A stretch of 64,000 nt of DNA, from the NCBI GenBank assembly GCA_052389555.1, contig JBQTHV010000108.1, positions 35 to 64,034 on the forward strand, read 5' to 3'. This document shows, in pieces, positions 1,992 through 60,635 of the stretch. The translations under genes and the position numbers were made by a program. Every line of letters starts with the position of its first letter. Positions within the stretch are counted from its first letter, which is position 1. The DNA is from Gemmatimonadales bacterium (GTDB lineage: Bacteria; Gemmatimonadota; Gemmatimonadetes; Gemmatimonadales; GWC2-71-9). The notes below the pieces were generated by a model, which saw only the letters and a program-made list of their open reading frames with translations, searched no databases and was not told where the DNA came from.

Positions 1992-2371
1992 GGTGCCGCA
2001 ATCGTGATGGTGCGGCTCACCGCGGTGGCGAGCCCCGTGCCGCTCACCGTGACGGTCACCCGCTTGTAGTCGTTGGTCTGGCCGACGCCCCCGGTCCGCA
2101 CGATGGTCGTTATCCGGGTTAGGCCGGCGGTCGGGGTGTTGCTCTCGCTCCCCGCGTACTTGCCATCGAGCGTGGAATAGGTCGGCCAGGAGCGCACCTC
2201 GGCAATGCGGGCTTCGACCGACGCCGAGGCCAGGGTGCGCACCCGGTCGTCGGTGACCCCGCGGATCATGCTGCCGGAGAGCCGCATGAGCGAGAGGGCG
2301 GCGATGGCGAGGATCACCAGAGCAATCAGCACCTCGATCAGGGTGAAGCCCGCTTCGCGCTTGCGCGTCAT
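1988..2371 (-). CDS. PilV-like minor pilin
   Basis: MTRKREAG/FTLIEVLIALVILAIAAL prepilin motif. I prefer the internal ATG at 2371 (track ORF starts 2419), giving a 1-nt overlap with the upstream stop. Confidence 0.8.
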   Translation of the reverse strand: MTRKREAGFTLIEVLIALVILAIAALSLMRLSGSMIRGVTDDRVRTLASASVEARIAEVRSWPTYSTLDGKYAGSESNTPTAGLTRITTIVRTGGVGQTNDYKRVTVTVSGTGLATAVSRTITIAAP

Positions 2372-2955
2372 CAGAACCCCCGAATCCAGGTCGTACCCGA
2401 CCCGGTGTACCGGAACCATTCGATCCGCCCCGTGGCGCGGACCATCTCGATGGCGCGAGTGTCCCTCATGCGGCGAGTTTCCCCGGCGGCTGCCCGCACC
2501 GACGTGAGATAGAGCCCACCGGAAGCGCTGGCCGCCCCGTTACGGTGAAACACCAGGGTCTGGGTTCCATCGGAGAGCGTCACCGGTCCGGCGCCGAACG
2601 CCCGCGCGGGGGCGCCACCCCGCCCGAACACGATGTGGCGTTCCAGCGACACGCCGCGGGTCCGCTCTCCCCCGTCCGCCGCCCCGTTGCCGTTCACGTC
2701 GTAGACGATCCGGAGCCGGCTGTTCGGCGCGTCGAAGATCACCAGGACATCGTGCTGGCGCGCGACCGCTTCGCGCTGAGCCGACTGCAAGGCGGTGCCG
2801 ACCTGCAGCATCGCGCTCTCCGCGCTGTAGCGGATGTAGTCGATGGCGGGAAAAGCGATCGCAGCGAGGATGCCGATGAGCGCCACCAGCACCAGCAGCT
2901 CGACCAGCGAGAAGCCGCCGTGTCGCGTCGGTTTGAGGCCTGCATAGTGCGTCAT
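2371..2955 (-). CDS. FimT/GspH-like minor pilin
   Basis: ...TRHGG/FSLVELLVLVALIGILAAIAFP prepilin motif. First gene of the minus-strand pilin operon. ATG 2955 preferred over 2985. Confidence 0.78.
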   Translation of the reverse strand: MTHYAGLKPTRHGGFSLVELLVLVALIGILAAIAFPAIDYIRYSAESAMLQVGTALQSAQREAVARQHDVLVIFDAPNSRLRIVYDVNGNGAADGGERTRGVSLERHIVFGRGGAPARAFGAGPVTLSDGTQTLVFHRNGAASASGGLYLTSVRAAAGETRRMRDTRAIEMVRATGRIEWFRYTGSGTTWIRGF

Positions 2956-3165
2956 GAGAGGTCGGCCGGCCAAACCCGGTATCAAGGTTCTGGAGGGAAC
3001 CGCAAGCGCCGCGCCGATCGAGGACCCACCTTAACCCCTTACCCTGCCGCGCGAGCCCCCTGTCTGTAGAGGCGGTGCAACAGGGCCCCGGACCAAAAAC
3101 ATTGCAGATCGCCCAAGCTATGATGCTGCTTGCAGTTCCTCGCGCGGGCGGCCTATCTTCCCGCC

Positions 3166-4491
3166 ATGGCCACCGCAACCGTCATGGACAAGCTGGTTTC
3201 GTTGTGTAAACGCCGCGGATTCGTGTTTCAGTCCTCCGAGATCTATGGCGGGTTGGGCTCGGTCTGGGATTTTGGCCCTCTGGGCGCCGAGCTCAAGAAA
3301 AACGTAAAGGACCGCTGGTGGCACGCGATGGTCCGCACCCGGGACGACATCGAGGGACTCGACGCGGCGATCCTGATGCATCCCAGGGTTTGGGAAGCTT
3401 CCGGTCACGTCGCGGGGTTCACCGATCCGCTGGTCGATTGCCGGACTTGCAAGGCGCGGTTTCGCGCTGATCAGCTCGATCAGGCTACCTGTCCCCAGAA
3501 GCCTTCGAAGCATCCTGGCGAACACTCCACCTGCGACCTGACCCAGCCCAGGATGTTCAACCTGATGTTCAAGACCTTCATGGGTCCGGTGGAGGAGCAG
3601 GCCGCGGTCGTCTATCTCCGCCCCGAGACGGCTCAGGGGATCTACCTCAACTATCTGAACGTGCTCCAGAGCTCGCGGCAGAAGATTCCATTCGGGATCG
3701 CCCAGATCGGCAAGGCATTCCGCAACGAAATCACCCCGGGGAATTTCATCTTCCGGACCCGGGAATTCGAGCAGATGGAGATGCAGTTCTTCCTCAAGCC
3801 TGGCGATGCCGAGGGGTGGTTCGAGCGTTGGCGCGGGTGGCGGATGGACTGGTATCGGGAGTTGGGCCTTACCCCCGCCAAGCTGCGCTGGCACGAGCAT
3901 ACCGGCGCGGAGCTGGCCCACTATGCCCGGGCCGCGTTCGATATCGAGTACGAGTTTCCGTTCGGATGGAACGAGATCGAGGGCATCCACAATCGCGGTG
4001 ACTATGACCTGAGCCGGCACCAGGAGTACTCTGGGAAGAAGCTCGAGTACTTCGACCAGGCGGCAAATACCCGCTACCTCCCGCACATCGTGGAGACCTC
4101 GGCTGGAGCCGATCGGGTGGCCCTGACGCTCCTGGTGGACGCGTTTCGCGAAGAACAAGTGGAGGGGGAGACCCGTACCGTGTTAGGGTTGCATCCGGCG
4201 ATGGCGCCGATCAAGGCGGCAGTCTTCCCGCTCGTCAACAAAGACGGTATGCCGGAGACGGCGACCGCGCTCTACCAGGACCTCCGCAAGCGCCTGGTGA
4301 CGTTCTACGACGACGGCGGCGCGATCGGGCGCCGATACCGGCGGATGGACGAGGTAGGCACCCCATTCTGCATCACCGTGGACGGCCTGACCGGGAGCGA
4401 CTGCTCGGTGACGGTGCGGCAACGGGACACGATGGCCCAGGAGCGGATCGCCATCGACGCGGTTGCGGGGTACCTCGTCGAGCGATTGTGA
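3166..4491 (+). CDS. glyQS: glycine--tRNA ligase (dimeric class II)
   Basis: ATG 3166 gives MATATVMDKLVSLCKRRGFVFQSSEIYGGLGSVWDFGPLGAELKKNVKDRWW, the canonical GlyRS N-terminus. Track ORF begins at an upstream TTG (3130). Confidence 0.93.
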   Translation: MATATVMDKLVSLCKRRGFVFQSSEIYGGLGSVWDFGPLGAELKKNVKDRWWHAMVRTRDDIEGLDAAILMHPRVWEASGHVAGFTDPLVDCRTCKARFRADQLDQATCPQKPSKHPGEHSTCDLTQPRMFNLMFKTFMGPVEEQAAVVYLRPETAQGIYLNYLNVLQSSRQKIPFGIAQIGKAFRNEITPGNFIFRTREFEQMEMQFFLKPGDAEGWFERWRGWRMDWYRELGLTPAKLRWHEHTGAELAHYARAAFDIEYEFPFGWNEIEGIHNRGDYDLSRHQEYSGKKLEYFDQAANTRYLPHIVETSAGADRVALTLLVDAFREEQVEGETRTVLGLHPAMAPIKAAVFPLVNKDGMPETATALYQDLRKRLVTFYDDGGAIGRRYRRMDEVGTPFCITVDGLTGSDCSVTVRQRDTMAQERIAIDAVAGYLVERL

Positions 4492-4497
4492 GCCGCG

Positions 4498-5202: not shown

Positions 5203-5496
5203 ATGACCCACGAAGCCGTCACCACTCTCCTGCCGGCCGAAGTGTTTGAGCGGGCCAAGCGGTTCTTCGCCGAGCGGGTTCCCAATCAGGCCGCCTTCCC
5301 CGAAACGGAGGGATCGACCTTCCTGGTCCTTCGCGGCCAGGGCGGTGAGGAGATCAGTCTGGCGGCATTCCCGGCGACTGCGGCCGACGGAGGTACCCGG
5401 GTTAGGGCCTCTACCCTCTTCTTCGATCAGCCTGTGGCGCGCTTTCTCGCGACCCTGCCGGCAGCGGCGGCCCCGCGGCAGCGGCGCTCCGCATGA
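5203..5496 (+). CDS. hypothetical protein
   Basis: 97-aa ORF with G+C-rich third positions. Its stop overlaps the next start (ATGA at 5493-5496). Confidence 0.5.
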   Translation: MTHEAVTTLLPAEVFERAKRFFAERVPNQAAFPETEGSTFLVLRGQGGEEISLAAFPATAADGGTRVRASTLFFDQPVARFLATLPAAAAPRQRRSA

Positions 5497-5790: not shown

Positions 5791-6702
5791 CGGTTGCTCG
5801 CCGTGCCTTTGCCTGCCGTCTTTACCTCAGCCCGCTGTTTTGAGCATCGCCCCGGGCCGGCCCATCCGGAATCCCCGGAGCGGTTGCGCGCGGTGCAACG
5901 GGCCGTCCAGGCAGAGGACCCGGCGGCGCTCCGCGAGGCCGGCCCCGCGGAGCGGGAGGCGCTCGAGCGGATACACCCACGGGACTATCTCGATCGGCTG
6001 GAGCGGCTGGCCTCGAGCGGTGGCGCGATGCTGGATCCCGATACCTTCCTGAGCGCCGGGAGTTTCGAGGCTGCCCGTGCCGCCGCCGGGGCGCTGCTGG
6101 ACGCGGTCCGCCACGCGTTGGCCGGGGGTGGCAATGCGTTCGCCGCGGTGCGTCCTCCCGGTCACCACGCGCTCCGCGATACGCCGATGGGCTTCTGCTT
6201 CCTGGCCAACGTTGTCATTGCCGCGCGAGAGGCGCAGGCCCTGGGCCGGGAGCGAGTCCTGATCGTGGACTGGGATGTCCATCATGGCAACGGCACCCAG
6301 GCCTTGATGGAGCGGGACGCAACCATTCGCTTGGTCTCGCTCCATCAATGGCCTCACTATCCCGGCACCGGCGCCGCATCGGAGCGCGGGGTGGGGAACG
6401 TGTTCAACCTGCCCAGACCTCCGGGGCTTCCCGCCGAGCGATACGGGGACGACCTCCGGGGAGGGATCGCGAGTGCGCTCGAGGACTGGGCCCCGAAGCT
6501 GATCCTGATCTCAGCGGGTTATGACAGCATGCGGGGCGATCCTCTGGGCGGCTTTACCCTCGAGCCCCAGCACTACGCCGATCTGGTCTGGTGGCTCAGA
6601 GATCGCTGTGTCGGGGTGCCGATCGTGGGTGTCCTGGAAGGGGGGTACCGGCCGGAGCGGATCGCGGCAGGCGTGCTGGCGACCCTCCGCGCGCTGGTTT
6701 GA
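5785..6702 (+). CDS. histone deacetylase-family (arginase/deacetylase superfamily) protein
   Basis: RPPGHHA, DWDVHHGNGTQ and SAGYDSMRGDPLGG motifs. Start uncertain: TTG 5785 lies in the heptamer array and GTG 5803 is an alternative. Confidence 0.85.
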   Translation: MPRLLAVPLPAVFTSARCFEHRPGPAHPESPERLRAVQRAVQAEDPAALREAGPAEREALERIHPRDYLDRLERLASSGGAMLDPDTFLSAGSFEAARAAAGALLDAVRHALAGGGNAFAAVRPPGHHALRDTPMGFCFLANVVIAAREAQALGRERVLIVDWDVHHGNGTQALMERDATIRLVSLHQWPHYPGTGAASERGVGNVFNLPRPPGLPAERYGDDLRGGIASALEDWAPKLILISAGYDSMRGDPLGGFTLEPQHYADLVWWLRDRCVGVPIVGVLEGGYRPERIAAGVLATLRALV

Positions 6703-6830: not shown

Positions 6831-7850
6831 GTGTCGCTTCGCCTCCAGGCCGACATCCTCGAGCTCAAGACGCGCCATCCGTTCATCATCGCGCGCGGGT
6901 CGCAGGATACCTATCGCACCGTAGCGGTCCGGCTGGTGGATCGCGACGGAGTGGAAGGTTGGGGCGAAGCGGCGCCCCAGCGGTTCTATGGGGAGACGCC
7001 CGAGACCGTGCTCGCGGCGCTGGAGGTGTATGCCACCGCGCTGCCGGACCATTCCTATCATCTCGACGACGCAGAGGCCCGCTTCGACTCGCTGCTCAAC
7101 GGCAACAACTCCGCCCGCGCGGCGCTCTCGGCGGCTCTCCATGACCTGGTGGGGAAGCGGCTCGGCGCACCGGTGTACCGGCTCTTCGGACTCGACCCGA
7201 TCAAGTGTCCGGTGTCCACCTTTACGATCGGGATCGACACGCCAGAGCGGATGCGACGAAAAGTGGAAGAGGCCGAGCCGTACCCCGTACTCAAGATCAA
7301 ACTCGGCACCCGGGACGATCTCGCGGTGCTGCGCGCCATCCGGGAGGTAACCTCGAAGGAGCTCCGGGTCGATGCCAACTGTGGCTGGACCCGGAAGCAG
7401 GCGATCCGGACGCTGCCGGTCCTCGAGGAGTTCGGGGTAACCGTACTCGAGCAGCCGCTCCATCCGGAGGATCTCGAAGGACTCGCCGAAGTCACGCGCC
7501 ATTCGCGCCTGCCGGTCATCGCGGACGAGAGCTGCCTGACCGCCGCCGACATTCCGCGGCTCGTGGGCAGGGTCGATGGGATCAACATCAAGCTCGCCAA
7601 GGCCGGCGGGTTACGGGAGGCGCTGCGGATGGTCGCCGTGGCCCGGGCTCACCATCTGATGGTGATGCTCGGGTGCATGATCGAGACGTCGGTAGCCATC
7701 ACCGCCATGGCCCAGATTGCGCCGCTGGTCGATCTGTGCGATCTCGACGGCGCTGCTCTCCTGGCCCACGATCCCTATGTCGGGGCAACCATCGACGGCG
7801 GACAGCTTCGGTTACCCGAGGGGCCGGGTCTCGGCCTCTCGCGGCGATGA
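6831..7850 (+). CDS. dipeptide epimerase (enolase superfamily, L-Ala-D/L-Glu epimerase-like)
   Basis: KIKLG, DANCGW, LEQP and IADES motifs. Track start 6591 overlaps the HDAC gene and a repeat array, so in-frame GTG 6831 is preferred. Confidence 0.8.
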   Translation: MSLRLQADILELKTRHPFIIARGSQDTYRTVAVRLVDRDGVEGWGEAAPQRFYGETPETVLAALEVYATALPDHSYHLDDAEARFDSLLNGNNSARAALSAALHDLVGKRLGAPVYRLFGLDPIKCPVSTFTIGIDTPERMRRKVEEAEPYPVLKIKLGTRDDLAVLRAIREVTSKELRVDANCGWTRKQAIRTLPVLEEFGVTVLEQPLHPEDLEGLAEVTRHSRLPVIADESCLTAADIPRLVGRVDGINIKLAKAGGLREALRMVAVARAHHLMVMLGCMIETSVAITAMAQIAPLVDLCDLDGAALLAHDPYVGATIDGGQLRLPEGPGLGLSRR

Positions 7851-10339
7851 TTCCCCGGTTTGCCAAGGTTGCTCTCCCGCTCCCTCTCTTCGAGCCCTAC
7901 CGCTATCGCATTCCCGAAAGCCTGGCCGACCGGATAGCTCCCGGTGCGCGCGTCGTGGTCCCGGTCCGGCGCCGCGAGCTCGTCGGGGTCGTCGTTGCCA
8001 CGGCAGGCGAACCGCCGGATCGCGAAGTCCGGGACATTCTGGGCGCCCCGGACCCGGAGCCCGCGCTTCCGGCGGCGCTGCTCCGGACCGCGGAGTGGAT
8101 GGCGGGATACTACGGCGCGCCGATTGGCATTGCGCTGAAGGCCATGCTGCCGCCGGGACTCTGGGGCGAGTCGAAGGTGCTGCTCAGGGCGGTCGGGCGG
8201 TCGGGCGGTCGGGCGGTCGGCGGGTTAGGTGGAGAGTTGCTCGAGTGGGTGGAGCGGCGAGGTGGAGAGGCGTCGCTCGCGACGGCCGCGCGCGCGCTCC
8301 GCAAGCCGCTCTGGGAGGCGGCGGATCGGCTGGTCCGCATCGGGGCGGCCGAGCTGGTCGTCGTCCCGGTCGCGACGGAACCGGCCGGGGCGATCGAACG
8401 CCGGCTGGAGCTGGTGGGCGAGCGGCTCACCCTGGTCGAGCGCAATGACCGGTTTGCGCGACGGGCCCGGCAGCGGGAGCTCTACGAGACGCTGGAGCGG
8501 CTGGGGGGATCGGCGCCAGTGACCCATCTCCGGGAGACGGTGGGGGTTGGCGACTCGGTGATCCGCTCCCTCACGGCCTCCGGCCTGGCGCGGCGGGTGT
8601 CGGTCGAGCGGGTTAGGGATCCTTTCGCCGGCGTCGAAGGCAGCCCGCCCCCGGCCGGCCTAACCCGCGAGCAGACGAGCGCCCTCGACCGCCTGCAGGC
8701 GCTGGAAGCGGGCGAGGGAGCCCTGCTCTTCGGGGTGACCGGGAGCGGCAAGACGCTGGTCTATCTCCGCGCGGTCGAGCGAATGGTCGAGGCCGGCCGG
8801 GGGGCGATCATCCTGGTGCCGGAGATCGGCCTCACGCCCCAAATGGTCAGCCGGGTGCGGGGGCTGTTCGGGAGCCGGGTTGCGGTGCTGCACAGCGGGC
8901 TTTCCGAAGGCGAGCGGGCGGACGCGTGGCGGCTGCTCCGCCGCGGCGAACGGATGGTGGCCGTGGGAGCCCGGTCCGCGGTCTTTGCGCCGCTCCAGAA
9001 CCTCGGCATCATCGTGCTCGACGAAGAGCACGAGACCAGCTACAAGAACGGCGAAGCCCCGCGCTACCACACCCGGGAGGTCGCCCTGGTTCGTGCGCGT
9101 ACGGAAGGCGCGTGTTACGTCCTGGGCAGCGCGACTCCCTCCCTCGAGACCAGGTCGCTCACTGACAGCCGAGTCCCGAGTGCCGAGCGACGAGTGCTGA
9201 GGGCCGACTCGCCGAGCCGCCGAGCCGCCGAGCCGTCCGGCAGTCTCGGGCTCCTCCGGCTGCCCCGCCGCATCGACGACCGGCCACTCCCTCCGGTCGA
9301 GCTGGTTGACCTGCGCTCGCAGCCCATGGTGCGGACCGGGCACGCCGTGCCCTGGTCCGAAGCGCTGGATCGGGCGCTGGATGGAGCCTTGGACCGGGGG
9401 GAGCAGACCATCCTCCTGCTCAACCGGCGGGGCTATTCGGCGTTTCTCCAGTGTCTGGAATGCGGGCTCGTCCCCGAGTGCCCGGACTGTTCCATCGCCC
9501 TTACTCTGCACCGGGTGCCGCCCGGGTTACGATGCCACTACTGCGGGCGGCGACTTCCGATTCCCGCCCAGTGTCCGGCCTGCGGCCACGCGGTTCAGCG
9601 CGCCCATGGCGTGGGTACCCAGCAGCTCGAGGAGCTGGTCGCGGCCCGCTTTCCGAAGGCGCGAGTGGCGCGGATGGACCTCGACACCACTTCGACCCGT
9701 TGGAGCCACGATCGGATCCTGGGGCGGATCGGGCGCGGCGAGGTCGATGTGCTGCTGGGCACTCAGATGATCGCCAAGGGGATGGACTTTCCCAACGTCA
9801 CCCTGGTCGGCGTGGTGGATGCCGATACCGCGCTGCACCTGCCCGATTTCCGGGCAGGCGAGCGCACGTTTCAGCTACTCGCCCAAGTGGCCGGGCGAGC
9901 CGGCCGGGGACCCAGGGGAGGAAAGGTGGTCGTCCAGACCCGTAACCCGGACCATCAGGCCCTGCAGTTCGCGGCAAAGCACGATACCGAAGGGTTCCTG
10001 GCCCGCGAGTTCGAGGCCCGCCGGGCGCCGCCGTACCCGCCCCACACCAACCTCGTCAACGTCATTGCGTCGGCCGAGCGGGAGGAAACCGCCGCTGCGG
10101 AAGCGCTGCGCGCCGCGGACTGGCTGGAGCAGTTGCGGGAACGGCACCAGCTTCCGATCACCGTGCTAGGACCGGCGCCCTGCCCGCTGACGCGGCTCAA
10201 AGGCCGCTGGCGCTGGCACCTGCTCCTCAAGGGCGACCGGGAACCCATCGGGCGGGTGGTGCGGTACGCGGCGCCCCGCCTGTCGGGGGGCCGGGGAACC
10301 CGTATCGTGCTGGATCGAGATCCGGTAAGCTTGCTATAA
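7847..10339 (+). CDS. priA: primosomal protein N' (replication restart helicase)
   Basis: MIPRFAKVALPLPLFEPYRYRIP N-terminus, Walker A GVTGSGKT, DEEH box, Cys-rich zinc region (CLECGLVPECPDC...CHYCG...CPACG). ATG 7847 overlaps the epimerase stop (ATGA). Track ORF start 7205 is an artefactual extension. Confidence 0.9.
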   Translation: MIPRFAKVALPLPLFEPYRYRIPESLADRIAPGARVVVPVRRRELVGVVVATAGEPPDREVRDILGAPDPEPALPAALLRTAEWMAGYYGAPIGIALKAMLPPGLWGESKVLLRAVGRSGGRAVGGLGGELLEWVERRGGEASLATAARALRKPLWEAADRLVRIGAAELVVVPVATEPAGAIERRLELVGERLTLVERNDRFARRARQRELYETLERLGGSAPVTHLRETVGVGDSVIRSLTASGLARRVSVERVRDPFAGVEGSPPPAGLTREQTSALDRLQALEAGEGALLFGVTGSGKTLVYLRAVERMVEAGRGAIILVPEIGLTPQMVSRVRGLFGSRVAVLHSGLSEGERADAWRLLRRGERMVAVGARSAVFAPLQNLGIIVLDEEHETSYKNGEAPRYHTREVALVRARTEGACYVLGSATPSLETRSLTDSRVPSAERRVLRADSPSRRAAEPSGSLGLLRLPRRIDDRPLPPVELVDLRSQPMVRTGHAVPWSEALDRALDGALDRGEQTILLLNRRGYSAFLQCLECGLVPECPDCSIALTLHRVPPGLRCHYCGRRLPIPAQCPACGHAVQRAHGVGTQQLEELVAARFPKARVARMDLDTTSTRWSHDRILGRIGRGEVDVLLGTQMIAKGMDFPNVTLVGVVDADTALHLPDFRAGERTFQLLAQVAGRAGRGPRGGKVVVQTRNPDHQALQFAAKHDTEGFLAREFEARRAPPYPPHTNLVNVIASAEREETAAAEALRAADWLEQLRERHQLPITVLGPAPCPLTRLKGRWRWHLLLKGDREPIGRVVRYAAPRLSGGRGTRIVLDRDPVSLL
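8187..8218. repeat. tandem octamer array (GGGCGGTC) x4 inside priA
   Basis: Read directly. Translated as RAVGRSGGRAVGG. Confidence 0.95.
9167..9236. repeat. GCCGAG-type heptamer/octamer array inside priA
   Basis: nnCCGAG units, then CCGCCGAG x3. Translated as RVPSAERRVLRADSPSRRAAEPS. Confidence 0.9.
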
Positions 10340-10350
10340 CGCAACGAGAA

Positions 10351-10385
10351 GGGCCGCGGGTTAGGCAAACATCGACCCACGGCCC
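10351..10385. terminator. bidirectional hairpin between convergent genes
   Basis: GGGCCGCGGGT (10351-10361) pairs with ACCCACGGCCC (10375-10385), 10 of 11 bp, 13-nt loop. It lies between the priA stop (10339) and the stop of the minus-strand gene (10412). No clear U-tract. Confidence 0.5.
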
Positions 10386-15662: not shown

Positions 15663-16091
15663 ATGGTCGAGCCTCGATTGCCATTCCCCACGACTAGCCT
15701 CACGCCCGGCCCGGGACCGGGATGGGAGCGGCTTGCCCAGGGCCTGCGCGAGTCGTTTCCCGTCGGTGAGCTCGATCGAATTTGGGCCTTCCGGGTTATG
15801 CGACGTGGGGGGCAGGACTTCGGGACCGCTATCCTCTCGCGTATCGAAGGCGACCGGCGCCGTGTCTATACCGCGCGGTTCGTGCACACCGTCAAGGGGA
15901 AGAAGCGGGGCGAATTCAGCTGGGCGGTGAAAGAAGTCGGGAGCGGACCGCTGGAGGCGCTCGACGAGTTGCTGGCCCTGGTCCCCAAGCGTTCGGATGA
16001 AGAAGAGCCTCCCGTCCCCATTTCACTGGAGATCTGGTTTCCCCACTCCCCACTCCCTACTCCCCGATCCCCAGTCACCAATCCCGACTGA
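15663..16091 (+). CDS. hypothetical protein (C-terminus encoded by CCCCACT heptamers)
   Basis: 142-aa ORF divergent from the receptor gene. No recognisable domain. The last ~12 codons are the heptamer array. Confidence 0.4.
   Translation: MVEPRLPFPTTSLTPGPGPGWERLAQGLRESFPVGELDRIWAFRVMRRGGQDFGTAILSRIEGDRRRVYTARFVHTVKGKKRGEFSWAVKEVGSGPLEALDELLALVPKRSDEEEPPVPISLEIWFPHSPLPTPRSPVTNPD
16041..16075. repeat. tandem heptamer array (CCCCACT-like) x5
   Basis: CCCCACT CCCCACT CCCTACT CCCCGAT CCCCAGT at the 3' end of ORF 15663-16091. Confidence 0.95.
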
Positions 16092-24766: not shown

Positions 24767-24784
24767 GATGAGGGTAGCGTTCGG

Positions 24785-52802: not shown

Positions 52803-53827
52803 GTCGGCCTTGGATCCTGCTGCTGGGGGCCGTGATCGCCTCGTGGGCACTGACTGGCGCGATTCGCCGGTGGGCCTTGCGAACAGGGGCACTCGATGTT
52901 CCTGGTCCGCGAAGTCTTCACGTCGTTCCAGTCCCGCGAAGCGGAGGGGCCGCCATCGCCACGGTAACGCTCGCCGCAGTGGCGGGCTTGGGGGCCTTTG
53001 GACTGATTTCCGCTTCTCTGGCGCAAGCAATCTTCCCCGGCGGACTCTTGATCGCGACAGTGGGTTGGCTCGACGACCGGCAACAGCTCGCCCCCGGGCT
53101 GCGGCTGGTCGTGCATTTCGCGGCTGCCGGATGGGCGGTCTGGAGCCTCGGCGGGCTCTCTGGTCTCGAACTCGGCCTAACCCGAATTCACTTGGGAACT
53201 GTCGGAGCGGTCCTTGCAGTACTCGCAATCGTCTGGGCTATCAACCTCTATAACTTCATGGACGGTATAGACGGCCTTGCGGGTGCGGAGGCAGTTCAGG
53301 TCGGAATCGCCGGGGCTCTGCTCGCGGCCTCCAACCCCTCGGGGCTTTCCTGGGTCGCGGCGGTGATGGCTGCTGCCTCGGCCGGGTTTCTCTGGTGGAA
53401 CCGGCCGCCCGCGCGGATCTTCATGGGCGACGTCGGCAGCGGCCTGCTGGGCTTTACGATGGGCGTGCTGGCTATCGCTTCCGAAACGACCGGCGGCCCG
53501 CCCAGCGCGGTCTGGCTGCTCCTCCTCGGCGTGTTTGTGTTCGATGCCACCGTGACGCTGGCACGGCGGCTGCTGGCTGGCGAGCCGGTCTACCGGCCGC
53601 ACCGCTCACACGCGTATCAACGGATGATCCTGGCGGGAGCGACGCACGGCCGGGTGACCGCGATAGTCGTCGGCATCAACGTTGCCCTGGCTTTGCTCGC
53701 GTTTGCGGCAGTGCAGTATCCTCGCGGCTTACCCGCCGCCATCGGCATGGCCGGGCTTGGATTGGCGAGCGGATATGTCGCGATTGAGCGCAGGCAACCC
53801 ATGACTTCGTCAACGCCCGGATTGTGA
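52799..53827 (+). CDS. undecaprenyl-phosphate HexNAc-1-phosphate transferase (MraY/WecA family)
   Basis: NLYNFMDGIDGLAG and FMGDVGS motifs. GTG 52799 overlaps the upstream stop. Confidence 0.82.
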   Translation: MSRPWILLLGAVIASWALTGAIRRWALRTGALDVPGPRSLHVVPVPRSGGAAIATVTLAAVAGLGAFGLISASLAQAIFPGGLLIATVGWLDDRQQLAPGLRLVVHFAAAGWAVWSLGGLSGLELGLTRIHLGTVGAVLAVLAIVWAINLYNFMDGIDGLAGAEAVQVGIAGALLAASNPSGLSWVAAVMAAASAGFLWWNRPPARIFMGDVGSGLLGFTMGVLAIASETTGGPPSAVWLLLLGVFVFDATVTLARRLLAGEPVYRPHRSHAYQRMILAGATHGRVTAIVVGINVALALLAFAAVQYPRGLPAAIGMAGLGLASGYVAIERRQPMTSSTPGL

Positions 53828-53848: not shown

Positions 53849-55798
53849 ATGAGTCGATCCGCGCCGCGGACGGTACCTCATCTCCGGAATCGATATCTCT
53901 TGCTGAGCGACGCCGTCCTCTTCACGGTGTCTCTCGGCCTCGCCTTCACCTTGCGGTACGAGGCCCTCGAGTGGCCGCCCGGGCAGGGCCGCACCTTTCT
54001 GCTGCTCGTCGCGATCTTCGTCCCGATCAAGCTCGCGTTGCTTTATGCGGTGGGACTGTACCGGCGGCTCTGGAGCTTCGCCGGGGTCGCCGAGCTGGAG
54101 CGCATCATTGTCGGCGGAATCCTGGTCGCAGTCGTAACCGGGATGTTGGGTGCCTGGATCCTTCCGGTGGCCGGTTTGCTCAATCCCAGGCCCGCGTTAG
54201 GAGTGCTTGCCTTCGATGCATTCCTGACCAGCGCGTTCCTGGCCGCCCCCCGGCTCCTGGCTCGCATTCTCCATCGTCGCGCCGCCACCGGTGTGTACGC
54301 GGGCGCCAAGCGCGTCCTGATCGCCGGGGCCGGCTCCTCCGGGGAGATCCTGGTCCGCCAGCTCCGCACCAATCCGCAGCTCGGTCTGCTTCCCATCGGA
54401 TTCCTCGACGATGACGAGAAGAAGCAGGGCCTCGTCATGCAGGACCTTCCGGTCTTCGGGGCCATCAGTCAACTTCGCCAGATCGCTCGCGAGGAGCAGG
54501 CCCGCGAAGTCATCATTGCCATGCCCTCGGCGCCGGGCACGGTGATTCGGCGGGTCCTTGACCTCGCGCGCGAGGCCGGCCTCGAGACCCGGACCATGGC
54601 CGGCGTCACCGAGTCGCTGTCGGGCCGCGCCGGTGCCTCCATCCTGAGGCCGGTGCGGATCGAAGACGTCCTTCGGCGCGAAGCGGTCCGCACCAACCTC
54701 GAGCGGGTTCGCGAGTTCGTGCAGGGTGCCACCGTTCTGGTCACCGGGGCCGGGGGCTCGATCGGGAGCGAGCTCTGCCGGCAGATCAGCTCGCTGGGTC
54801 CGGCCCGATTGCTTCTGCTGGGCCATGCCGAGAACGACATTTTCGAGATTCATGAGGAGCTGCGCGAGCGGCACCCCTCCATTCAGTTGGTGCCGCTGAT
54901 CGCGGATGTCCGCGACCGCAAGCGAATCGACCGGCTCCTCCGCGGCAGCCCTCCGACCACGATCTTCCACGCGGCGGCGCACAAGCACGTGCCGTTGATG
55001 GAAGAGAACATCGCCGACGCGATTACCAACAACGTGCTCGGTACCCTGAATGTCGCCGAGCTCGCGGTCGAGCTGGGGACCCGCCATATGGTGCTGGTCT
55101 CCACCGACAAGGCGGTTCGACCGACCAATGTGATGGGGGCGACCAAACGCGTGGCGGAGCAGGTAGTCCAGGAGCTCTCCACCCCGCACGAGCGGCATTT
55201 CATCGCCGTTCGGTTCGGCAACGTGCTCGGCAGCCGGGGCAGCGTCATTCCTAGCTTCCTTGCCCAGATCGCGGCTGGTGGACCCGTGCGGGTAACCCAT
55301 CCCGAAATGCGCCGCTTCTTCATGACGATCCCGGAGTCGGTTCAGCTCGTGCTCCAGGCCGCCGCGTTAGGACGGGGTGGGGAGGTCTTTGTGCTCGACA
55401 TGGGCGAGCCGGTTCGCATCCTGGATCTGGCCCGCGACCTGATTCGGCTGTCCGGCCTGGAGGAAGGGAAGGACATCCAGATCCACTTCAGCGGGGTGCG
55501 TCCCGGCGAGAAGCTGTACGAAGAGCTCTTCTTCGGGGCGGAAGTCGCTGCTCCAACCGAACATCCGAAGATCCTCAAGGCTCGGCATGCCGAAATCCAG
55601 GAGCCGGTGATGCCGGCCGTCGCTGCGTTGATCGAGGCGGCCCGCGCCGGCGCGCCTGACGAAGTCCTCCTTGCCTGGCTCCGCAAGCTGGTGCCTGACT
55701 ACGATCCCGCCAAGAGCCCGCACAACATCACCGGTCGGATGCAGGACAAGGCGACGCCCCGCCTCACCGAGGCTCCGCCCGTCCCGCCGGCAACCTGA
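53849..55798 (+). CDS. polysaccharide biosynthesis protein, CapD/WbpM/PglF-like UDP-HexNAc 4,6-dehydratase
   Basis: N-terminal TM segments, VLVTGAGGSIGSEL, HAAAHKHVP, STDKAV. Confidence 0.85.
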   Translation: MSRSAPRTVPHLRNRYLLLSDAVLFTVSLGLAFTLRYEALEWPPGQGRTFLLLVAIFVPIKLALLYAVGLYRRLWSFAGVAELERIIVGGILVAVVTGMLGAWILPVAGLLNPRPALGVLAFDAFLTSAFLAAPRLLARILHRRAATGVYAGAKRVLIAGAGSSGEILVRQLRTNPQLGLLPIGFLDDDEKKQGLVMQDLPVFGAISQLRQIAREEQAREVIIAMPSAPGTVIRRVLDLAREAGLETRTMAGVTESLSGRAGASILRPVRIEDVLRREAVRTNLERVREFVQGATVLVTGAGGSIGSELCRQISSLGPARLLLLGHAENDIFEIHEELRERHPSIQLVPLIADVRDRKRIDRLLRGSPPTTIFHAAAHKHVPLMEENIADAITNNVLGTLNVAELAVELGTRHMVLVSTDKAVRPTNVMGATKRVAEQVVQELSTPHERHFIAVRFGNVLGSRGSVIPSFLAQIAAGGPVRVTHPEMRRFFMTIPESVQLVLQAAALGRGGEVFVLDMGEPVRILDLARDLIRLSGLEEGKDIQIHFSGVRPGEKLYEELFFGAEVAAPTEHPKILKARHAEIQEPVMPAVAALIEAARAGAPDEVLLAWLRKLVPDYDPAKSPHNITGRMQDKATPRLTEAPPVPPAT

Positions 55799-57263
55799 AC
55801 GACAGCGCCGCCATGACGCGCGCTTCGACGCTGGTGCGAGTCCGGCCATCCTGGTGCTCCGCGTTTCGGGTGTGCCGCACGCCCGCCTCGACCTGAACGT
55901 CCAGCGGGCCGCCTAACCCGGCAAGCGAGGCGCCGGCCCACCCAGTCCGCGCGATCGTCCCGATGAAGCGGGCCGGGGTCGTAGCCGCCTCCTCTGGCGG
56001 CGGGAATGGGGCGTTGATCCGCCCTTCGCCTTGCCGGAGCAACGCCAGCTTCGGAGAGATCAGCCAGGTGCCCCGCACCGGGATCCCGACCGAGAGAAAG
56101 GCCTGCTCATTATCCGGAAAGAGCCGGCCAATTCCGACCCCCCGGTCAACCCAGCTCTCTTCCGGGCGAAAGGTCCGGAGGGCCAGACTGGACACCGTGG
56201 CATAACCCGCTATCCACGAGGCTCTCGGACCCAATGCCCCCGCGCCGGTAACCGTCGCCGCCCATCGCTGCGGGTACGGGTTGTCACCGAAGTTCCAGTC
56301 GTCGATCGCGAGCTCGGCCTCGATCCGTATCCCTCGGCGCACCCGCCACGACAGGGATAGGCCGACCATCTCGTTCCGATGAAACTGGGATGCGTAAACG
56401 GCAGGGTAGATCAGCAGCGGCACGACGGCCTTGGTCACGCCGTCGAGCTCAGCCGCCGGGCCGGCGATGACGGCCGCTTCCCAGGCGGCGATGCTCAAGG
56501 AACCAGCCGGTCGTAGGGTGAGGCGATGCTGGACCAGGTAACGTTGAATCGGTTCGCCGCCCTCCACCTCGACGTCTTGCAGGCGCGTCGCCAGGGCATC
56601 GTACCGGACCGCTTCCAGGCCGAGCGTCACCCCGAGATCGGGGCGCGGGTAACCCGCATCGCTGATAGCGGTCCCGGGAAATCCGACCGGCCCCCAGTTC
56701 CGGGCCAGCTGTCCGGCGTGCACCACGATCCAGCGGTGCTGCAACCCGGCGTACCCCTCGATGGCGCGGAGGACCAGTGATTGGTCTGCGATCCGCTCCG
56801 GCTCCGGCCACTCGGGATCTCCCTTGAGCCGATTCTCCGCCGCACCTCGTGCCGCAATGATGAGTGGCCCGGACACTACCCAGCCGCCGAGCTCACCGTA
56901 TCCCCGAATTGCGCCCTCACTGCCGCCGGGCCTCAGGAGGTCCTGCCGGCCCTGCGAGAAACCTTGCAGTCCCCCTCGGCCCACCACCTGCCAGTGCTCG
57001 CCCGGGCTGGCCAGCGCGCGCGCGAGCCGCGCTGCCAGGCGATCATCCGTGGTGGCGAGCGCCGCCATGAGATCGGTTCGTCGAAGCGGTCGCATCAGCG
57101 GTGACGGATCCCGAATCGCACCGCGCGCGATCAGGTGCTCGACGAGCGGCATCGCCGGATGATCGGTCGGGATGAATGGCGACGCCTGCGCGGCCGCCCT
57201 TTCGACACCGAACACGAGGAGACCGTACCAGAGTACGGACGCGGAGCAATGGGCACCCGACAT
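55764..57263 (-). CDS. Wzi-like capsule assembly/outer-membrane protein (tentative)
   Basis: ATG 57263 gives a signal-like N-terminus, then IPTDHPAMPLVEHLIARGAIRDPSP..RP..R.D as in Wzi-family proteins. The track ORF start 57542 would overlap the neighbouring gene. Confidence 0.5.
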   Translation of the reverse strand: MSGAHCSASVLWYGLLVFGVERAAAQASPFIPTDHPAMPLVEHLIARGAIRDPSPLMRPLRRTDLMAALATTDDRLAARLARALASPGEHWQVVGRGGLQGFSQGRQDLLRPGGSEGAIRGYGELGGWVVSGPLIIAARGAAENRLKGDPEWPEPERIADQSLVLRAIEGYAGLQHRWIVVHAGQLARNWGPVGFPGTAISDAGYPRPDLGVTLGLEAVRYDALATRLQDVEVEGGEPIQRYLVQHRLTLRPAGSLSIAAWEAAVIAGPAAELDGVTKAVVPLLIYPAVYASQFHRNEMVGLSLSWRVRRGIRIEAELAIDDWNFGDNPYPQRWAATVTGAGALGPRASWIAGYATVSSLALRTFRPEESWVDRGVGIGRLFPDNEQAFLSVGIPVRGTWLISPKLALLRQGEGRINAPFPPPEEAATTPARFIGTIARTGWAGASLAGLGGPLDVQVEAGVRHTRNAEHQDGRTRTSVEARVMAALSFRLPAGRAEPR

Positions 57264-57713: not shown

Positions 57714-58589
57714 GTGCGTTCCCGCCCTCCCGCTCCAGGTCTTCCAGAAGTCTCTGTCGTCGGGTTCGGCGGAATGCCCCTCTCGATCCAGGGGCGCCCC
57801 GACCAGGCTACCGCCATCACCGTCCTGCATGCCGCCTTCGACGCCGGCGTGACCCTCGTGGACACCGCCGACGTGTATTGCTTCGACGATCGCGACCTCG
57901 GACACAATGAGCGGCTCATCGCGCAGGCGCTGCGGTCCTGGCAGGGTCCCCGCGACCGGATTCTCGTCGCCACCAAGGGAGGCCTAACCCGCCCCGAAGG
58001 CCGCTGGGATCGCAATGCAAGCCCCAAGCATCTCCGCCAGGCCTGCGAGCGCTCGTTGCTCGCGCTGGGTGTCGAGCAGATCGCGCTCTACCAGCTCCAC
58101 GCTCCCGATCCGGTCATCCGGCTCGAGGACAGCATCGCGACTCTGGCGGACTTGCAGCGAGAAGGGAAGATCCGCTGGATCGGGCTCTCCAATGTCACCG
58201 TTCCGCAGATCCTCGCGGCAGAAGCCATCGGGTCTGTTGCCACGGTACAGAACCGGCTGAATCCCTTCTACCGCGAGGCGCTCTCCGATGGCGTCGTGGC
58301 CCATTGCGCCTCTCGAGACATCGGGTTTCTCGCCTACGGTCCGGTCGGGGGGCGAAGGCTCAACCAGCGGCTGCCAGAGCATCCCGTGTTGCGAAGCCTT
58401 TCTGCCCGGCTCGGCGAGTCGCCGCACGCTATCGTCCTTGCGTGGGTGCTTGCCCAAGGGCGGACCGTGTTCGCCATCCCGGGGGTGCGCACCGTGCCCC
58501 ATGCTCGCGACTCCGCCCGCGCCGCAGACCTGATACTCTCCCGTACCGATCTCCGCGCGATCTCCCAGGCGCACTTCGAGCGGACGTAG
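57714..58589 (+). CDS. aldo/keto reductase
   Basis: [23 protein letters not shown]. Confidence 0.85.
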
Positions 58590-58701
58590 GCGGGAAGACG
58601 GAAAGACGGTCAGACAGTCAGAGGTTATCCGCCGAGGCTCGACGAACGTAGCCCTTCCACCTGTCCGTCTGTCCGCCTGTCCGTCTGTCCGTCTGACCGT
58701 C
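58589..58701. repeat. inverted octamer arrays (GAAGACGG-like ... CTGTCCGT x5) forming a hairpin
   Basis: Left arm 58589-58624 starts in the AKR stop codon. Right arm 58660-58701. Upstream of ispG. Confidence 0.88.
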
Positions 58702-58722
58702 AAACCACCTTACTTTTCCGGC

Positions 58723-59937
58723 ATGGCTCTCACCTCCCGCCGCCCCACCCCGACCGTCTGGATTGGACCCGTCCCGGTCGGCTCGTGCCATCCGATCGTG
58801 GTCCAGTCCATGACCAATACCGATACCGCCGACGTGGCGGCGACGGTGGCTCAGGTTCGGGCCCTCGCCGAAGCGGGGAGCGAACTGGTTCGGGTGACCG
58901 TCAACAATGCGGAAGCGGCCCAGGCCGTGCCGGAGATCGTCGCTCGCCTGGAGCGTGAGGGATGCCGGGTGCCCGTCGTCGGAGACTTCCACTACAACGG
59001 CCACCTCTTGCTCACCCGCTATCCTGAGTGCGCCGCGGCACTGGCGAAGTACCGCATTAACCCGGGGAATGTCGGCACCAAACGGCGGGACGAGAACTTC
59101 CGCGCGATCGTGGATGTGGCGGCCCGGAACCACAAGCCGGTGCGGATCGGAGTCAACTGGGGCTCGCTCGACCAGGATCTCCTGACCGAGCTCATGGATC
59201 GCAATGCCGGGCTCCCCGAGCCGGATGATGCGCGGACCGTTACCATCGAGGCGATGGTCGAGAGCGCCCTCCGCTCGGCCCGTCTCGCCGAGGAAAGCGG
59301 GTTGTCGCACGACCGGATCGTGCTCTCGGCCAAAGTCTCCGGAGTACCCGACCTCCTCCAGGTGTATCGCGAGCTCGCGGCCCGCTGCGACCATCCGCTC
59401 CACCTGGGTCTTACCGAGGCGGGTATGGGGATGAAGGGGGCGGTCGCCAGCGCAGCCGCGCTCGCCGTGCTCCTCGAAGAGGGAATCGGCGACACGATCC
59501 GGGTCTCGCTCACCCCTGCTCCCGGCGGCGACCGGACCGAAGAAGTGCGGGTGGCCCAGCAGATCCTGCAATCGCTGGGGCTCCGGAGCTTCGCGCCCCA
59601 GGTCACCAGTTGTCCCGGTTGCGGCCGCACCACCAGCACGTTTTTTCAGCAGATGGCTCAGGACATTCAGAGCTATGTGCAGTCGCGCATGAGCGAGTGG
59701 AAGGCCTCGCGACCTGGCGTGGAAACGCTGCGCGTCGCGGTGATGGGCTGCGTGGTAAACGGACCGGGGGAATCCAAGCACGCCGACATCGGGATTTCCC
59801 TGCCCGGCACGTTCGAGGAGCCCAAGGCCCCCGTATATATGGACGGGCGCCTGCACGCGACGCTCAAGGGCGATACCATCGTCGCTGACTTCCTCGCCAT
59901 TCTCGACGACTACGTCGCCCGCCGGTTTCCGGGTTGA
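58723..59937 (+). CDS. ispG: 4-hydroxy-3-methylbut-2-en-1-yl diphosphate synthase
   Basis: [43 protein letters not shown]. Confidence 0.92.
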
Positions 59938-60635
59938 TCCAGGCCGCGAGCTCCCAGCTTCTCGCCAGTCCGCTCGAGGCGCTCCCGGTCCTCTTCGGAG
60001 CGGGTCTGGTCACCAGCCTCAATCCCTGCATCTATCCGATGATTCCGATCACCATCGGGATTCTGGGCGGCGCCGGGGCGGCAACCCGAAGCCGCCGGAA
60101 GACGATTGGGTACACTCTGCTGTATGCGCTCGGGCTCGCCCTGGTCTATGCTGTGCTGGGCCTGGTCGCCGGCCTCACCGGGACCCTCTTCGGCTCAGTC
60201 AGCTCCAACCGGTGGGCCTACCTCTTCATGGCGAACCTGCTCCTGCTTGCCGGTCTCGCCATGCTCGACGTCTTTCCTGTTACCATGCCGAAGCGGATCG
60301 TGGCCTGGGCGAGCCGGTTCGGCAGCCGGTCGGCGGGATCCGTGTTTCTGATGGGGGCGACCTCCGGGCTGGTGGCCGCACCCTGTGGCGCGCCGGCGTT
60401 TGCCGCGGTGCTCACTTTTGTGGGTCAGACCCGGAGTGCCGGGTTAGGGTTCCTGTACCTCCTGGTCTTTTCGCTGGGGATGACGACGCTGCTCATTGGG
60501 GTGGGCCTATCCGCGGGCACCCTCGCCGCGCTGCCCAAGCCGGGCCGGTGGATGGCCTGGGTGAAGAAAGTCGCCGGCGTGGTTATTCTGGGGATGGCGG
60601 AGTATTACCTCATTCAGGCGGGAAAAGTATGGTGA
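59934..60635 (+). CDS. ccdA: CcdA/DsbD-family thiol-disulfide transporter (second copy)
   Basis: [18 protein letters not shown] and VAAPCGAP motifs. TTG 59934 overlaps the ispG stop. Confidence 0.82.

Follow-up and report, generated by a model that had tools for sequence, protein, structure and literature searches.

A hyperabundant DUS/USS/HIP1-type genomic word in Gemmatimonadota with a putative role in DNA uptake

What kind of force writes the same nine bases into ordinary genes, on either strand and in rare codons? The question is raised by a 64-kb stretch of a Gemmatimonadales chromosome (positions 35 to 64,034 of contig JBQTHV010000108.1, assembly GCA_052389555.1; hereafter, the window), in which an exact search of both strands found the 9-mer CCTAACCCG 30 times, 17 on the forward (+) and 13 on the reverse (-) strand (Table 1). 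This corresponds to a density of 4.7 copies per 10 kb and a mean gap of 2.0 kb. The same total had been reported in an earlier note on this DNA; its forward-strand starts also hold, save that 43564 is really 43563, whereas most of its complement starts are one base late because the start of GGGTTAGG was quoted, and one of them, 12887, is wrong, the copy lying at 12876.

A nine-base word that overrides codon preference

Against the 30 observed copies, 100 dinucleotide-preserving shuffles of the window (67% G+C overall, 65-70% throughout) averaged 0.29 copies and never exceeded 2, and an order-3 Markov model predicted 0.46; the word is ~100-fold over-represented relative to chance. The earlier note had proposed comparison with a codon-aware null, and this too is exceeded about 25-fold: swapping synonymous codons among positions that code for the same amino acid left 1.24 copies and permuting codons within genes left 1.18, both means including the one intergenic copy, which was not shuffled. 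These nulls are conservative, because the rare codons contributed by CCTAACCCG itself are reused in them. Related DNA provides an empirical baseline: the 2.23 Mb of 160 Gemmatimonadales loci contain 6 copies, 5 of them in the nearest clade, and the more distant Gemmatimonadales DNA has ~1 copy in ~2 Mb. A de novo k-mer scan of the window detected no second hyperabundant word, the other top k-mers being variants of the word or units of tandem repeats, and an Rfam scan returned no matches.

The word has sharp edges (CCTAACCC, n = 30; CCTAACCCG, n = 30; CTAACCCG, n = 33). The base on its 5' side is unconstrained, and the base on its 3' side is C in 19 copies, G in 10 and A in 1, just as the earlier note had stated in giving C or G for 29 of 30. 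Within 30 nt on either side, the sole standouts are this C/G at +1 and a G at -5 (20 of 30), both marginal after correction for multiple testing and codon position. With nothing else conserved in the flanks, an extended or gapped motif is unsupported, as is a link to telomere-like CCCTAA, C standing at -1 in just 8 of 30 copies, the background level.

Fifty genes, 40 of them on the + strand, were called in the window with a codon-usage model, and 94.6% of the sequence is coding. All but one of the perfect copies lie inside called genes, 17 in the sense and 12 in the antisense orientation, and the three reading frames described in the earlier note were found 17, 6 and 6 times: every sense copy is framed xxC-CTA-ACC-CGN and read Leu-Thr-Arg, and the antisense copies are divided between CGG-GTT-AGG (Arg-Val-Arg) and GGG-TTA-GGN (Gly-Leu-Gly). 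Neither of the stop-giving frames holds a perfect copy; the antisense stop frame holds a TAT variant instead. The remaining copy is intergenic and lies in a hairpin, and the sole inverted pair, with its members 41 nt apart, is inside priA.

Leu-Thr-Arg, the cheapest codon context, is saturated by the word. As many as 17 of the 21 Leu-Thr-Arg tripeptides in the window are spelled CTAACCCGN (CTA-ACC-CGN), with CTA making up 1.6% of leucine codons; the earlier claim that this tripeptide is nearly always word-spelled thus stands, with four exceptions instead of two. For Gly-Leu-Gly and Arg-Val-Arg, the word spelling is used in 6 of 21 and 6 of 22 cases, respectively. By our estimate from the window codon table, ~2 base changes are needed to reach the word from Leu-Thr-Arg and ~3 from either of the other two tripeptides, and no sense-strand preference has to be invoked, because Leu-Thr-Arg is nearest to the word under the codon usage of the window. 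The word family accounts for 17 of 37 CTA and 16 of 27 TTA codons, and Leu-Thr-Arg is itself in excess (21 tripeptides vs 11.7 expected from amino-acid composition, P = 0.009). Selection at the level of protein or sense RNA was rejected, given that three frames and both strands are used.

The positions of the copies fit a uniform distribution (Kolmogorov-Smirnov p = 0.79), and their spacing is slightly more even than random (coefficient of variation 0.76 vs 0.97, P = 0.08), although some copies are 50 and 388 bp apart. Orientation does not switch across the window, which spans neither ori nor ter, and 57% of copies are on the majority strand; the orientation neutrality asserted in the earlier note applies to the whole 64 kb and equally to 41 kb of a sister genome described below.

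Near matches, relatives and the origin of the copies

The excess falls steeply with departure from the word: the ratio of observed to expected (O/E) counts is 112, 2.7 and 1.0 for zero, one and two mismatches, respectively, the 27 one-mismatch neighbours being expected ~14 times altogether. This non-linear fall resembles that of the uptake sequences of Haemophilus influenzae and Neisseria gonorrhoeae, whose over-representation drops 92- and 82-fold from zero to one mismatch (Bakkali 2007, PMC1939737). Single mismatches are enriched mainly at position 2, as CATAACCCG (C>A; 8 observed vs 0.24 expected) and CGTAACCCG (C>G; 4 vs 0.40), and at position 7, as CCTAACACG (C>A; 7 vs 0.16) and CCTAACGCG (C>G; 3 vs 0.47). 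Substitutions at position 3 add 11 single-mismatch copies (T>A 4, T>C 3, T>G 4), and positions 4-6, 8 and 9 hardly vary. In its relaxed form, TAACCCG, the core is found 52 times in the window; the six additional positions named in the earlier note are real, but the core adds 22 copies to the perfect ones rather than 6.

Protein constraint explains these variants, each of which is the nearest form that the protein tolerates: ATA-ACC-CGN where isoleucine stands, GTG-TTA-GG or GCG-TTA-GG for Val-Leu-Gly or Ala-Leu-Gly, and GGT-TAT where the perfect word would give a TAG stop. The variants are again spelled with rare codons. Rare-codon variants occur where the protein forbids the perfect word, and near matches are therefore favoured too, although far less than perfect ones.

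Alignments with orthologous DNA are collinear at word sites, which identifies the copies as substitutions and not insertions. Accordingly, a 9-bp in-frame insertion or a miniature mobile element was rejected, the flanks of the copies also being unrelated to one another. At 8 of the 10 alignable sites, at least one window residue differs from the consensus of relatives, typically by a change from Leu-Val/Ala/Glu-Arg to Leu-Thr-Arg, and many orthologous sites are 3-4 bases away from the word, with non-synonymous changes among them. Word sites are slightly less conserved than average (mean percentile 0.40, not significant), and the highly conserved nrdJ gene has no perfect copy and just two variants (Pro-Asn-Thr and Pro-Asn-Ala). 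The suggestion in the earlier note that selection acts on the DNA word itself is thus borne out by the use of three frames and both orientations, by the rare CTA, TTA and AGG codons, and by amino-acid changes relative to orthologues: the force on the word overrides codon preference and, where tolerated, amino-acid identity.

In scans of genome and metagenome collections, the closest NrdJ matches, from metagenome-assembled genome (MAG) and metagenome contigs, are 86-88% identical to that of the window, and among 5.8 billion proteins the window PriA has no relative above 74% identity. A sister region (M001), obtained by merging two overlapping loci of MAG contig CAVSLV010000001.1 into 41.4 kb, is syntenic with the window at a local average amino-acid identity (AAI) of 72%. 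It contains 6 perfect copies where 0.17 are expected, three on each strand and all antisense, which amounts to ~1.5 per 10 kb, a third of the window density; its O/E ratios for zero, one and two mismatches are 36, 2.1 and 0.94. Its variants (five CGTAACCCG and three CATAACCCG) form a different mix from those of the window. Its six perfect copies all lie away from the positions of window copies, and a few sites are shared by the two regions in variant form (e.g., 29121 and 18739). Two other relatives, L003 and L004, have one perfect site each in common with the window. When the nearest clade (AAI 69-72%) is pooled, TAACCCG shows a weak enrichment, being found 20 times vs 3.1 expected. The distant loci show no enrichment of the word or of its C-led variants, and most of their relaxed-core matches are GGTAACCCG, which probably reflects a conserved protein motif. 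CCTAACCCG is missing from the majority of the 160 related loci, and a de novo word search revealed none with a hyperabundant word of its own. The graded densities and the non-orthologous sites of the sister region thus mark the trait as young, with copies still building up independently in two lineages at the least.

Candidate mechanisms

Collectively, these results strongly support a directional, per-site force that acts on double-stranded DNA sequence in both orientations and rewards likeness to a single 9-mer. Such properties invite comparison with the uptake signal sequences (USS) of Pasteurellaceae (9-bp core AAGTGCGGT / ACAAGCGGT), which likewise have an asymmetric 9-bp core, occur ~1 per 1-2 kb in both orientations, include many intragenic copies in stop-avoiding frames, and arise by point substitution at permissive positions (PMC1939737; 10.1101/2025.10.24.684340). 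The window word differs from USS in its unrelated sequence, in its host (phylum Gemmatimonadota, 67% G+C), in the lack of AT-rich flanking segments or other flank signal, in having almost no association with terminators, and in its confinement to one narrow lineage where USS are family-wide. The DNA uptake sequences (DUS) of Neisseriaceae, which are read by the minor pilin ComP, are also hyperabundant self tags, 10-12 bases long, with dialects that occur at differing densities (PMC3630211); similarly, the sister genome carries the core of the word with another mix of variants, and minor pilin genes are present in the window. However, DUS are largely intergenic inverted repeats in terminators, whereas 29 of 30 copies of the window word are coding, and no ComP-like globular domain is detectable by sequence in the window pilins.

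We propose that CCTAACCCG may be a DUS-like self tag spread by biased horizontal transmission, a proposition that we regard as evenly poised. Under this proposal, a sequence-specific receptor on a DNA-import apparatus (the most plausible candidate being a minor pilin from a retractile type IV pilus) would bind double-stranded DNA carrying the word in either orientation, and DNA released by kin would thereby be imported and recombined preferentially. A mutation creating or improving a copy would be transmitted more often than its alternative (molecular drive), and the word would, over time, be written wherever the protein tolerates it. The receptor is predicted to accept changes at positions 2 and 7 but not at 4-6, 8 or 9 (contrast words CCTGACCCG, CCTAAGCCG and CATAACCCG). 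Candidate machinery lies at the left end of the window, in a cluster of type IV minor-pilin-like genes (Table 1) whose large protein has no family match. The sister genome has an equivalent cluster (L161, 1-5870), with proteins 68-74% identical, adjoining purA and the gene for a PilT/PilU-family ATPase; these genes reveal a type IV filament system that is probably retractile. Among known mechanisms, the one that leaves exactly such a footprint as is seen in the window is uptake bias combined with homologous replacement, the molecular drive of DUS and USS (10.1101/2025.10.24.684340; PMC1939737); that it operates here we consider as likely as not. Whether the system also represents a third independently evolved DNA-uptake specificity, the first outside Pseudomonadota and caught while spreading, is a tentative extension toward which we lean slightly negatively.

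Several points weigh against an uptake role. Our literature search found no transformation or uptake bias documented for Gemmatimonadota, and no report of uptake sequences or competence in the phylum or of a relevant novel uptake sequence. Just one of the 30 copies is intergenic, and there is one loose inverted pair, whereas about half of DUS and USS copies are in terminators, often as inverted pairs (10.1101/2025.10.24.684340); the range of the word is, moreover, much narrower than the family-wide ranges of DUS and USS. The likeness to uptake sequences put forward in the earlier note accordingly holds for the steep mismatch profile and, within the 64 kb, for the orientation neutrality, and not for the intergenic share or the range. 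One locus, L081, is approximately as close to the window as the sister region (AAI 71%; NrdJ 89.6%), and its 15 kb contain not a single perfect copy. Type IV pilin genes are widespread and provide no evidence of sequence-specific uptake, so that the cluster is candidate machinery only, and in a sequence search of the PDB the three window pilins matched solved pilins only in the N-terminal helix, beyond which they resemble neither ComP nor any other solved DNA-receptor pilin. Finally, any other mechanism that biases transmission or conversion toward the word would leave all of these genomic signatures as well. We hold the uptake reading no higher than evenly poised because uptake as the biased step, with a pilin as the receptor, is what we infer, and because two features, the scarcity in terminators and the narrow range, depart from the known families.

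An intracellular process, such as a sequence-specific modification enzyme acting together with biased mismatch repair or short-patch gene conversion, could steadily turn near-cognate DNA into the word without any uptake; we consider this unlikely, although it has a precedent. HIP1 (GCGATCGC) of cyanobacteria is, according to PMC5861425 and PMC4390886, an 8-bp intragenic word, 15- to 300-fold over-represented, with lineage-specific abundance, unsettled function, no proven uptake role and a tie to orphan methyltransferases. The narrow, graded range of the window word would fit the recent gain of one enzyme, and the saturation of Leu-Thr-Arg, which speaks for a per-site force, would be given by repair bias as well. 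However, HIP1 is a phylum-wide palindrome with methylase sites, whereas CCTAACCCG is asymmetric, has no palindromic methylase-type core and is limited to one small clade. Furthermore, sites that required 3-4 base changes, some non-synonymous, would not readily result from single-mismatch repair bias; protein constraint accounts for the enriched variants, which are C>A and C>G transversions and include no C>T of the sort expected near 5-methylcytosine; and the window genes include neither a DNA methyltransferase nor a repair gene of this kind. Also quite unlikely is an array of sites for an abundant chromosomal protein involved in nucleoid organisation, segregation or occlusion and kept by selection on the cell. 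The sharp, asymmetric 9 bp with its invariant (4-6, 8-9) and tolerant (2, 7) positions could be the footprint of one DNA-binding domain, and the spacing of the copies, slightly more even than random, is compatible with such an array, but a need for one site per region explains neither the spelling of 17 of 21 Leu-Thr-Arg tripeptides nor copies as close as 50 and 388 bp, and close relatives with matching gene order do without the word. The sites of parS, matS, Noc and SlmA number from tens to about a hundred, are mostly palindromic and are not known to rewrite coding sequence.

Equal molecular drive could come from another vehicle, if the word biased transfer by a gene-transfer agent, domesticated phage packaging or conjugation; we find this improbable. 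The population-genetic signatures need only preferential transmission of word-bearing DNA, and a 2026 preprint ties HIP1 abundance to type IV secretion systems (10.64898/2026.06.24.733823), but no phage, gene-transfer-agent or conjugation gene is present in the window, and the machinery beside the region is of the pilus type. To our knowledge, the known gene-transfer agents package DNA by a headful mechanism that lacks sequence specificity. There is a very small chance that the word is a Chi-like hotspot of recombination or self-marker recognised by RecBCD/AddAB, or else a KOPS-like polar motif recognised by FtsK. The complement of the word, CGGGTTAGG, is G-rich in the manner of Chi and KOPS/SRS words, which are similarly short, over-represented and tolerated in coding sequence. 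These words are, however, co-oriented with replication (Chi about 75%, KOPS 85% or more) and modestly enriched (few-fold for Chi in E. coli, not 100-fold), whereas the window word is orientation-neutral even though 40 of 50 genes are on the + strand, as it is in the sister region. With a 75% skew, at most 17 of 30 copies would lie on the majority strand with a probability of 0.02, and with a 90% skew this probability drops to 2e-6; KOPS-type polarity is rejected on the latter value. Thus, among the alternatives raised in the earlier note, the KOPS type drops out, the Chi type is disfavoured, and a protein site and a modification-linked word stay at the low probabilities given above. That sequencing, base-calling or assembly errors converted a true motif into CCTAACCCG has a negligible probability. 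Systematic errors at methylated motifs do occur in some long-read data, and the sister genome is a long-read MAG, but a single-base miscall could not yield 30 copies, because all 27 one-mismatch neighbours together are expected ~14 times; orthologous sites differ by 3-4 bases and in the amino acid, with reading frames intact; and the pattern recurs at other positions in the independent M001 assembly. On these grounds an artefact was rejected.

Genomic setting and significance

The window is ordinary chromosome, with hisS, priA, nadA/nadC, a TonB-dependent receptor, ggt, anmK, nrdJ, ispG and a 23-kb locus of polysaccharide biosynthesis and export at 34.5-57.3 kb (34510-57340). The latter encodes Wzy, Wzz, glycosyltransferases, two asparagine-synthase-like amidotransferases, a heparinase II/III-like protein and a PEP-CTERM-type export protein. 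All relatives have, directly after nrdJ, the region found at 57.3 kb in the window, and the island is for this reason specific to the window lineage at that position. Word density is equal in the island and the core (12 copies in 22.8 kb vs 18 in 41.2 kb), and the island is either a long-term resident or derived from a word-carrying donor.

Table 1. Word copies, single-mismatch variants, pilin-like genes and tandem arrays in the window
Feature	Position (strand)	Frame and reading	Gene or context; relatives
CCTAACCCG	2115..2123 (-)	sense Leu-Thr-Arg (CTA ACC CGG)	minor-pilin-like gene 1988-2419(-)
CCTAACCCG	5398..5406 (-)	antisense Arg-Val-Arg	ORF 5203-5496(+)
CCTAACCCG	8221..8229 (-)	antisense Gly-Leu-Gly (GGG TTA GGT)	priA
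CCTAACCCG	8609..8617 (-)	antisense Arg-Val-Arg	priA; inverted pair with 8659
CCTAACCCG	8659..8667 (+)	sense Leu-Thr-Arg	priA
CCTAACCCG	10357..10365 (-)		intergenic; stable hairpin between convergent genes, dG -31.9 kcal/mol, z -2.3
CCTAACCCG	12876..12884 (-)	antisense Gly-Leu-Gly	nadC-like gene 12331-13188(+)
CCTAACCCG	14008..14016 (+)	antisense Arg-Val-Arg	TonB-dependent receptor gene 13528-15609(-)
CCTAACCCG	19887..19895 (+)	sense Leu-Thr-Arg	SIS/MurQ-like gene; relatives Leu-Val-Arg
CCTAACCCG	20792..20800 (+)	sense Leu-Thr-Arg	anmK; relatives Leu-Glu/Asp/Ala-Arg
CCTAACCCG	22909..22917 (+)	sense Leu-Thr-Arg	GH3 gene; relatives Leu-Ala-Arg
CCTAACCCG	23709..23717 (-)	antisense Gly-Leu-Gly	sodium:solute symporter gene; L003 identical word, identical position
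CCTAACCCG	24586..24594 (-)	antisense Arg-Val-Arg	symporter gene; relatives Arg-Val-Gly
CCTAACCCG	25787..25795 (-)	sense Leu-Thr-Arg	PP2C gene 25330-26472(-); relatives Leu-Thr-His/Phe/Trp
CCTAACCCG	29121..29129 (+)	sense Leu-Thr-Arg	amidase gene; sister genome GCTAACCCG; others ATG ACS CGN
CCTAACCCG	30920..30928 (+)	sense Leu-Thr-Arg	GWxTD-domain gene; relatives Leu-Ala-Arg
CCTAACCCG	36251..36259 (+)	sense Leu-Thr-Arg	Wzy_C gene (island)
CCTAACCCG	36977..36985 (+)	sense Leu-Thr-Arg	FkbM methyltransferase gene (island)
CCTAACCCG	37731..37739 (+)	sense Leu-Thr-Arg	asparagine-synthase-like gene 37708-39597 (island)
CCTAACCCG	38668..38676 (-)	antisense Arg-Val-Arg	asparagine-synthase-like gene 37708-39597 (island)
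CCTAACCCG	39487..39495 (-)	antisense Arg-Val-Arg	asparagine-synthase-like gene 37708-39597 (island)
CCTAACCCG	43563..43571 (+)	sense Leu-Thr-Arg	amidotransferase gene 43189-45174 (island)
CCTAACCCG	44676..44684 (+)	sense Leu-Thr-Arg	amidotransferase gene 43189-45174 (island)
CCTAACCCG	45383..45391 (+)	sense Leu-Thr-Arg	heparinase II/III-like gene (island)
CCTAACCCG	46145..46153 (-)	antisense Gly-Leu-Gly	heparinase II/III-like gene (island)
CCTAACCCG	48151..48159 (+)	sense Leu-Thr-Arg	3' end of glycosyltransferase gene 46910-48178 (island)
CCTAACCCG	53176..53184 (+)	sense Leu-Thr-Arg (CGA)	Glycos_transf_4 gene (island); sole copy with A at +1
CCTAACCCG	55912..55920 (+)	antisense Gly-Leu-Gly	gene 55764-57542(-)
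CCTAACCCG	57983..57991 (+)	sense Leu-Thr-Arg	aldo/keto reductase gene; L004 same word; others Ile/Met-Val/Ile-Arg
CCTAACCCG	60440..60448 (-)	antisense Gly-Leu-Gly	DsbD_TM gene; relatives Val/Ala-Leu-Gly with CTG/CTC
CATAACCCG	536..544 (-)	sense Ile-Thr-Arg with rare ATA
CATAACCCG	6515..6523 (-)	antisense Gly-Tyr (GGT TAT); perfect word = TAG stop	conserved in sister genome
CATAACCCG	15792..15800 (-)	antisense Arg-Val-Met
CATAACCCG	18739..18747 (-)	sense Ile-Thr-Arg	ggt; sister genome CGTAACCCG (Val-Thr-Arg)
CATAACCCG	26514..26522 (+)		outside called genes
CATAACCCG	37444..37452 (-)	antisense Gly-Tyr frame, TAT for TAG stop
CATAACCCG	42975..42983 (+)	sense Ile-Thr-Arg
CATAACCCG	56201..56209 (+)	antisense Gly-Tyr frame
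CCTAACACG	4179..4187 (-)	antisense Val-Leu-Gly with rare TTA
CCTAACACG	21629..21637 (-)	antisense Val-Leu-Gly (TTA)
CCTAACACG	22772..22780 (+)	sense Pro-Asn-Thr
CCTAACACG	32673..32681 (+)	sense Pro-Asn-Thr	nrdJ
CCTAACACG	47107..47115 (-)	antisense Val-Leu-Gly (TTA)
CCTAACACG	49067..49075 (-)	antisense Val-Leu-Gly (TTA)
CCTAACACG	60895..60903 (-)	antisense Val-Leu-Gly (TTA)
CGTAACCCG	7607..7615 (-)	antisense Gly-Leu-Arg (TTA)
CGTAACCCG	9523..9531 (-)	antisense Pro-Gly-Leu-Arg	priA; identical in sister genome
CGTAACCCG	9941..9949 (+)	sense Arg-Asn-Pro	priA
CGTAACCCG	36101..36109 (+)	sense Val-Thr-Arg with rare GTA
CCTAACGCG	32022..32030 (+)	sense Pro-Asn-Ala	nrdJ
CCTAACGCG	54193..54201 (-)	antisense Ala-Leu-Gly (TTA)
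CCTAACGCG	55363..55371 (-)	antisense Ala-Leu-Gly (TTA)
Type IV minor-pilin-like cluster	1..2985 (-)		three prepilin-type proteins plus a large protein cut off at the left window edge
Prepilin-type protein	840-1991 (-)		large
Prepilin-type protein	1988-2419 (-)		GspI/PilV-like
Prepilin-type protein	2371-2985 (-)		GspH/FimT/ComGD-like
Tandem array	5748-5787
Tandem array	6743-6776
Tandem array	11145-11256
Tandem array	16040-16089
Tandem arrays	16814-16844 / 16902-16931
Tandem array	20494-20557
Tandem arrays	24702-24768 / 25273-25335
Tandem array	28265-28347
Tandem array	29541-29577
Tandem array	34511-34541
Tandem arrays	49177-49221 / 49265-49296
Tandem array	58591-58701
Tandem array	60637-60791
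Tandem array	61278-61353

Apart from the word, almost every intergenic spacer of the window contains a short tandem array of 3-8 copies of a 7- or 8-bp unit, each array with a unit of its own and often arranged as an inverted pair able to fold into a long hairpin. Similar paired arrays are present in other Gemmatimonadales loci (L005, L010, L051 and M001). They recall the heptamer STRR repeats of cyanobacteria. At the left edge of the island (34511-34541), a 14-bp unit, AGGAGGTAGTRAGA, is repeated, and it recurs, together with an inverted partner, at 49177-49296. Within the part of priA that encodes the N terminus lies an exact octamer array (GGGCGGTC x 4.2, 8187-8220) that directly abuts the word copy at 8221; the window PriA has 830 aa vs 811-817 aa in most relatives. 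Inverted arrays of the octamer AGACGGTA, with 8 and 7 copies (24702-25335), enclose a small gene (24785-25144(-)) that belongs to the '23S rRNA-intervening sequence protein' family (PF05635, E = 3e-29), and this 0.9-kb unit looks like an insertion, because it is absent from the sister genome at that position. After a metallopeptidase-like gene of the Zincin_1 family (4498-5193) come two overlapping small open reading frames (ORFs; 5203-5496 and 5493-5753), the latter with a weak ubiquitin-fold match (E = 0.003, below the Pfam cut-off); the ORF pair is conserved in the sister genome and the Zincin_1 gene is not. In the pooled near-clade NrdJ loci (L081, L002-L004, L082-L086 and others), the AT-rich 8-mers ATTTGTGA, TTTGTGAT and TGTGATGT are over-represented (9-10 copies vs about 0.3-0.5 expected), probably because these loci all share a conserved regulatory element close to nrdJ.

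A 2025 survey gives Neisseriaceae and Pasteurellaceae as the only families with known uptake-enhancing sequences (10.1101/2025.10.24.684340), and whether such tags originate by molecular drive or by selection is still argued (10.1101/2025.10.24.684340; PMC1939737). A literature search for CCTAACCCG and its complement returned only primers and telomere oligonucleotides. From metagenomic data, one study infers competence to be widespread among abundant soil bacteria; Gemmatimonadetes species are among the populations it covers, and its passage on ComEC and competence names no phylum (PMC7305173). The word described here is thus a hyperabundant genomic word of the DUS/USS/HIP1 type that is new for Gemmatimonadota, with a putative role in uptake.

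The finding bears on whether uptake tags generally result from transformation and on how fast they spread, because the case comes from a distant, soil-associated, uncultured, high-G+C phylum, is almost wholly intragenic and shows graded densities in sister lineages. A DNA-level force that accounts for about half of the regional CTA and TTA codons, and for amino-acid changes, matters for analyses of codon usage and dN/dS. In practical terms, the word is a marker for binning contigs of the lineage and may offer a handle for its transformation. Should uptake not be the cause, an as yet undescribed mechanism would be needed for a 100-fold enriched asymmetric 9-mer within genes. Should it be the cause, the window, its sister and the next relatives (~4.7, ~1.5 and almost no copies per 10 kb) would constitute a natural time series for the birth of uptake tags, and would show to what extent molecular drive can prevail over codon usage and protein sequence.

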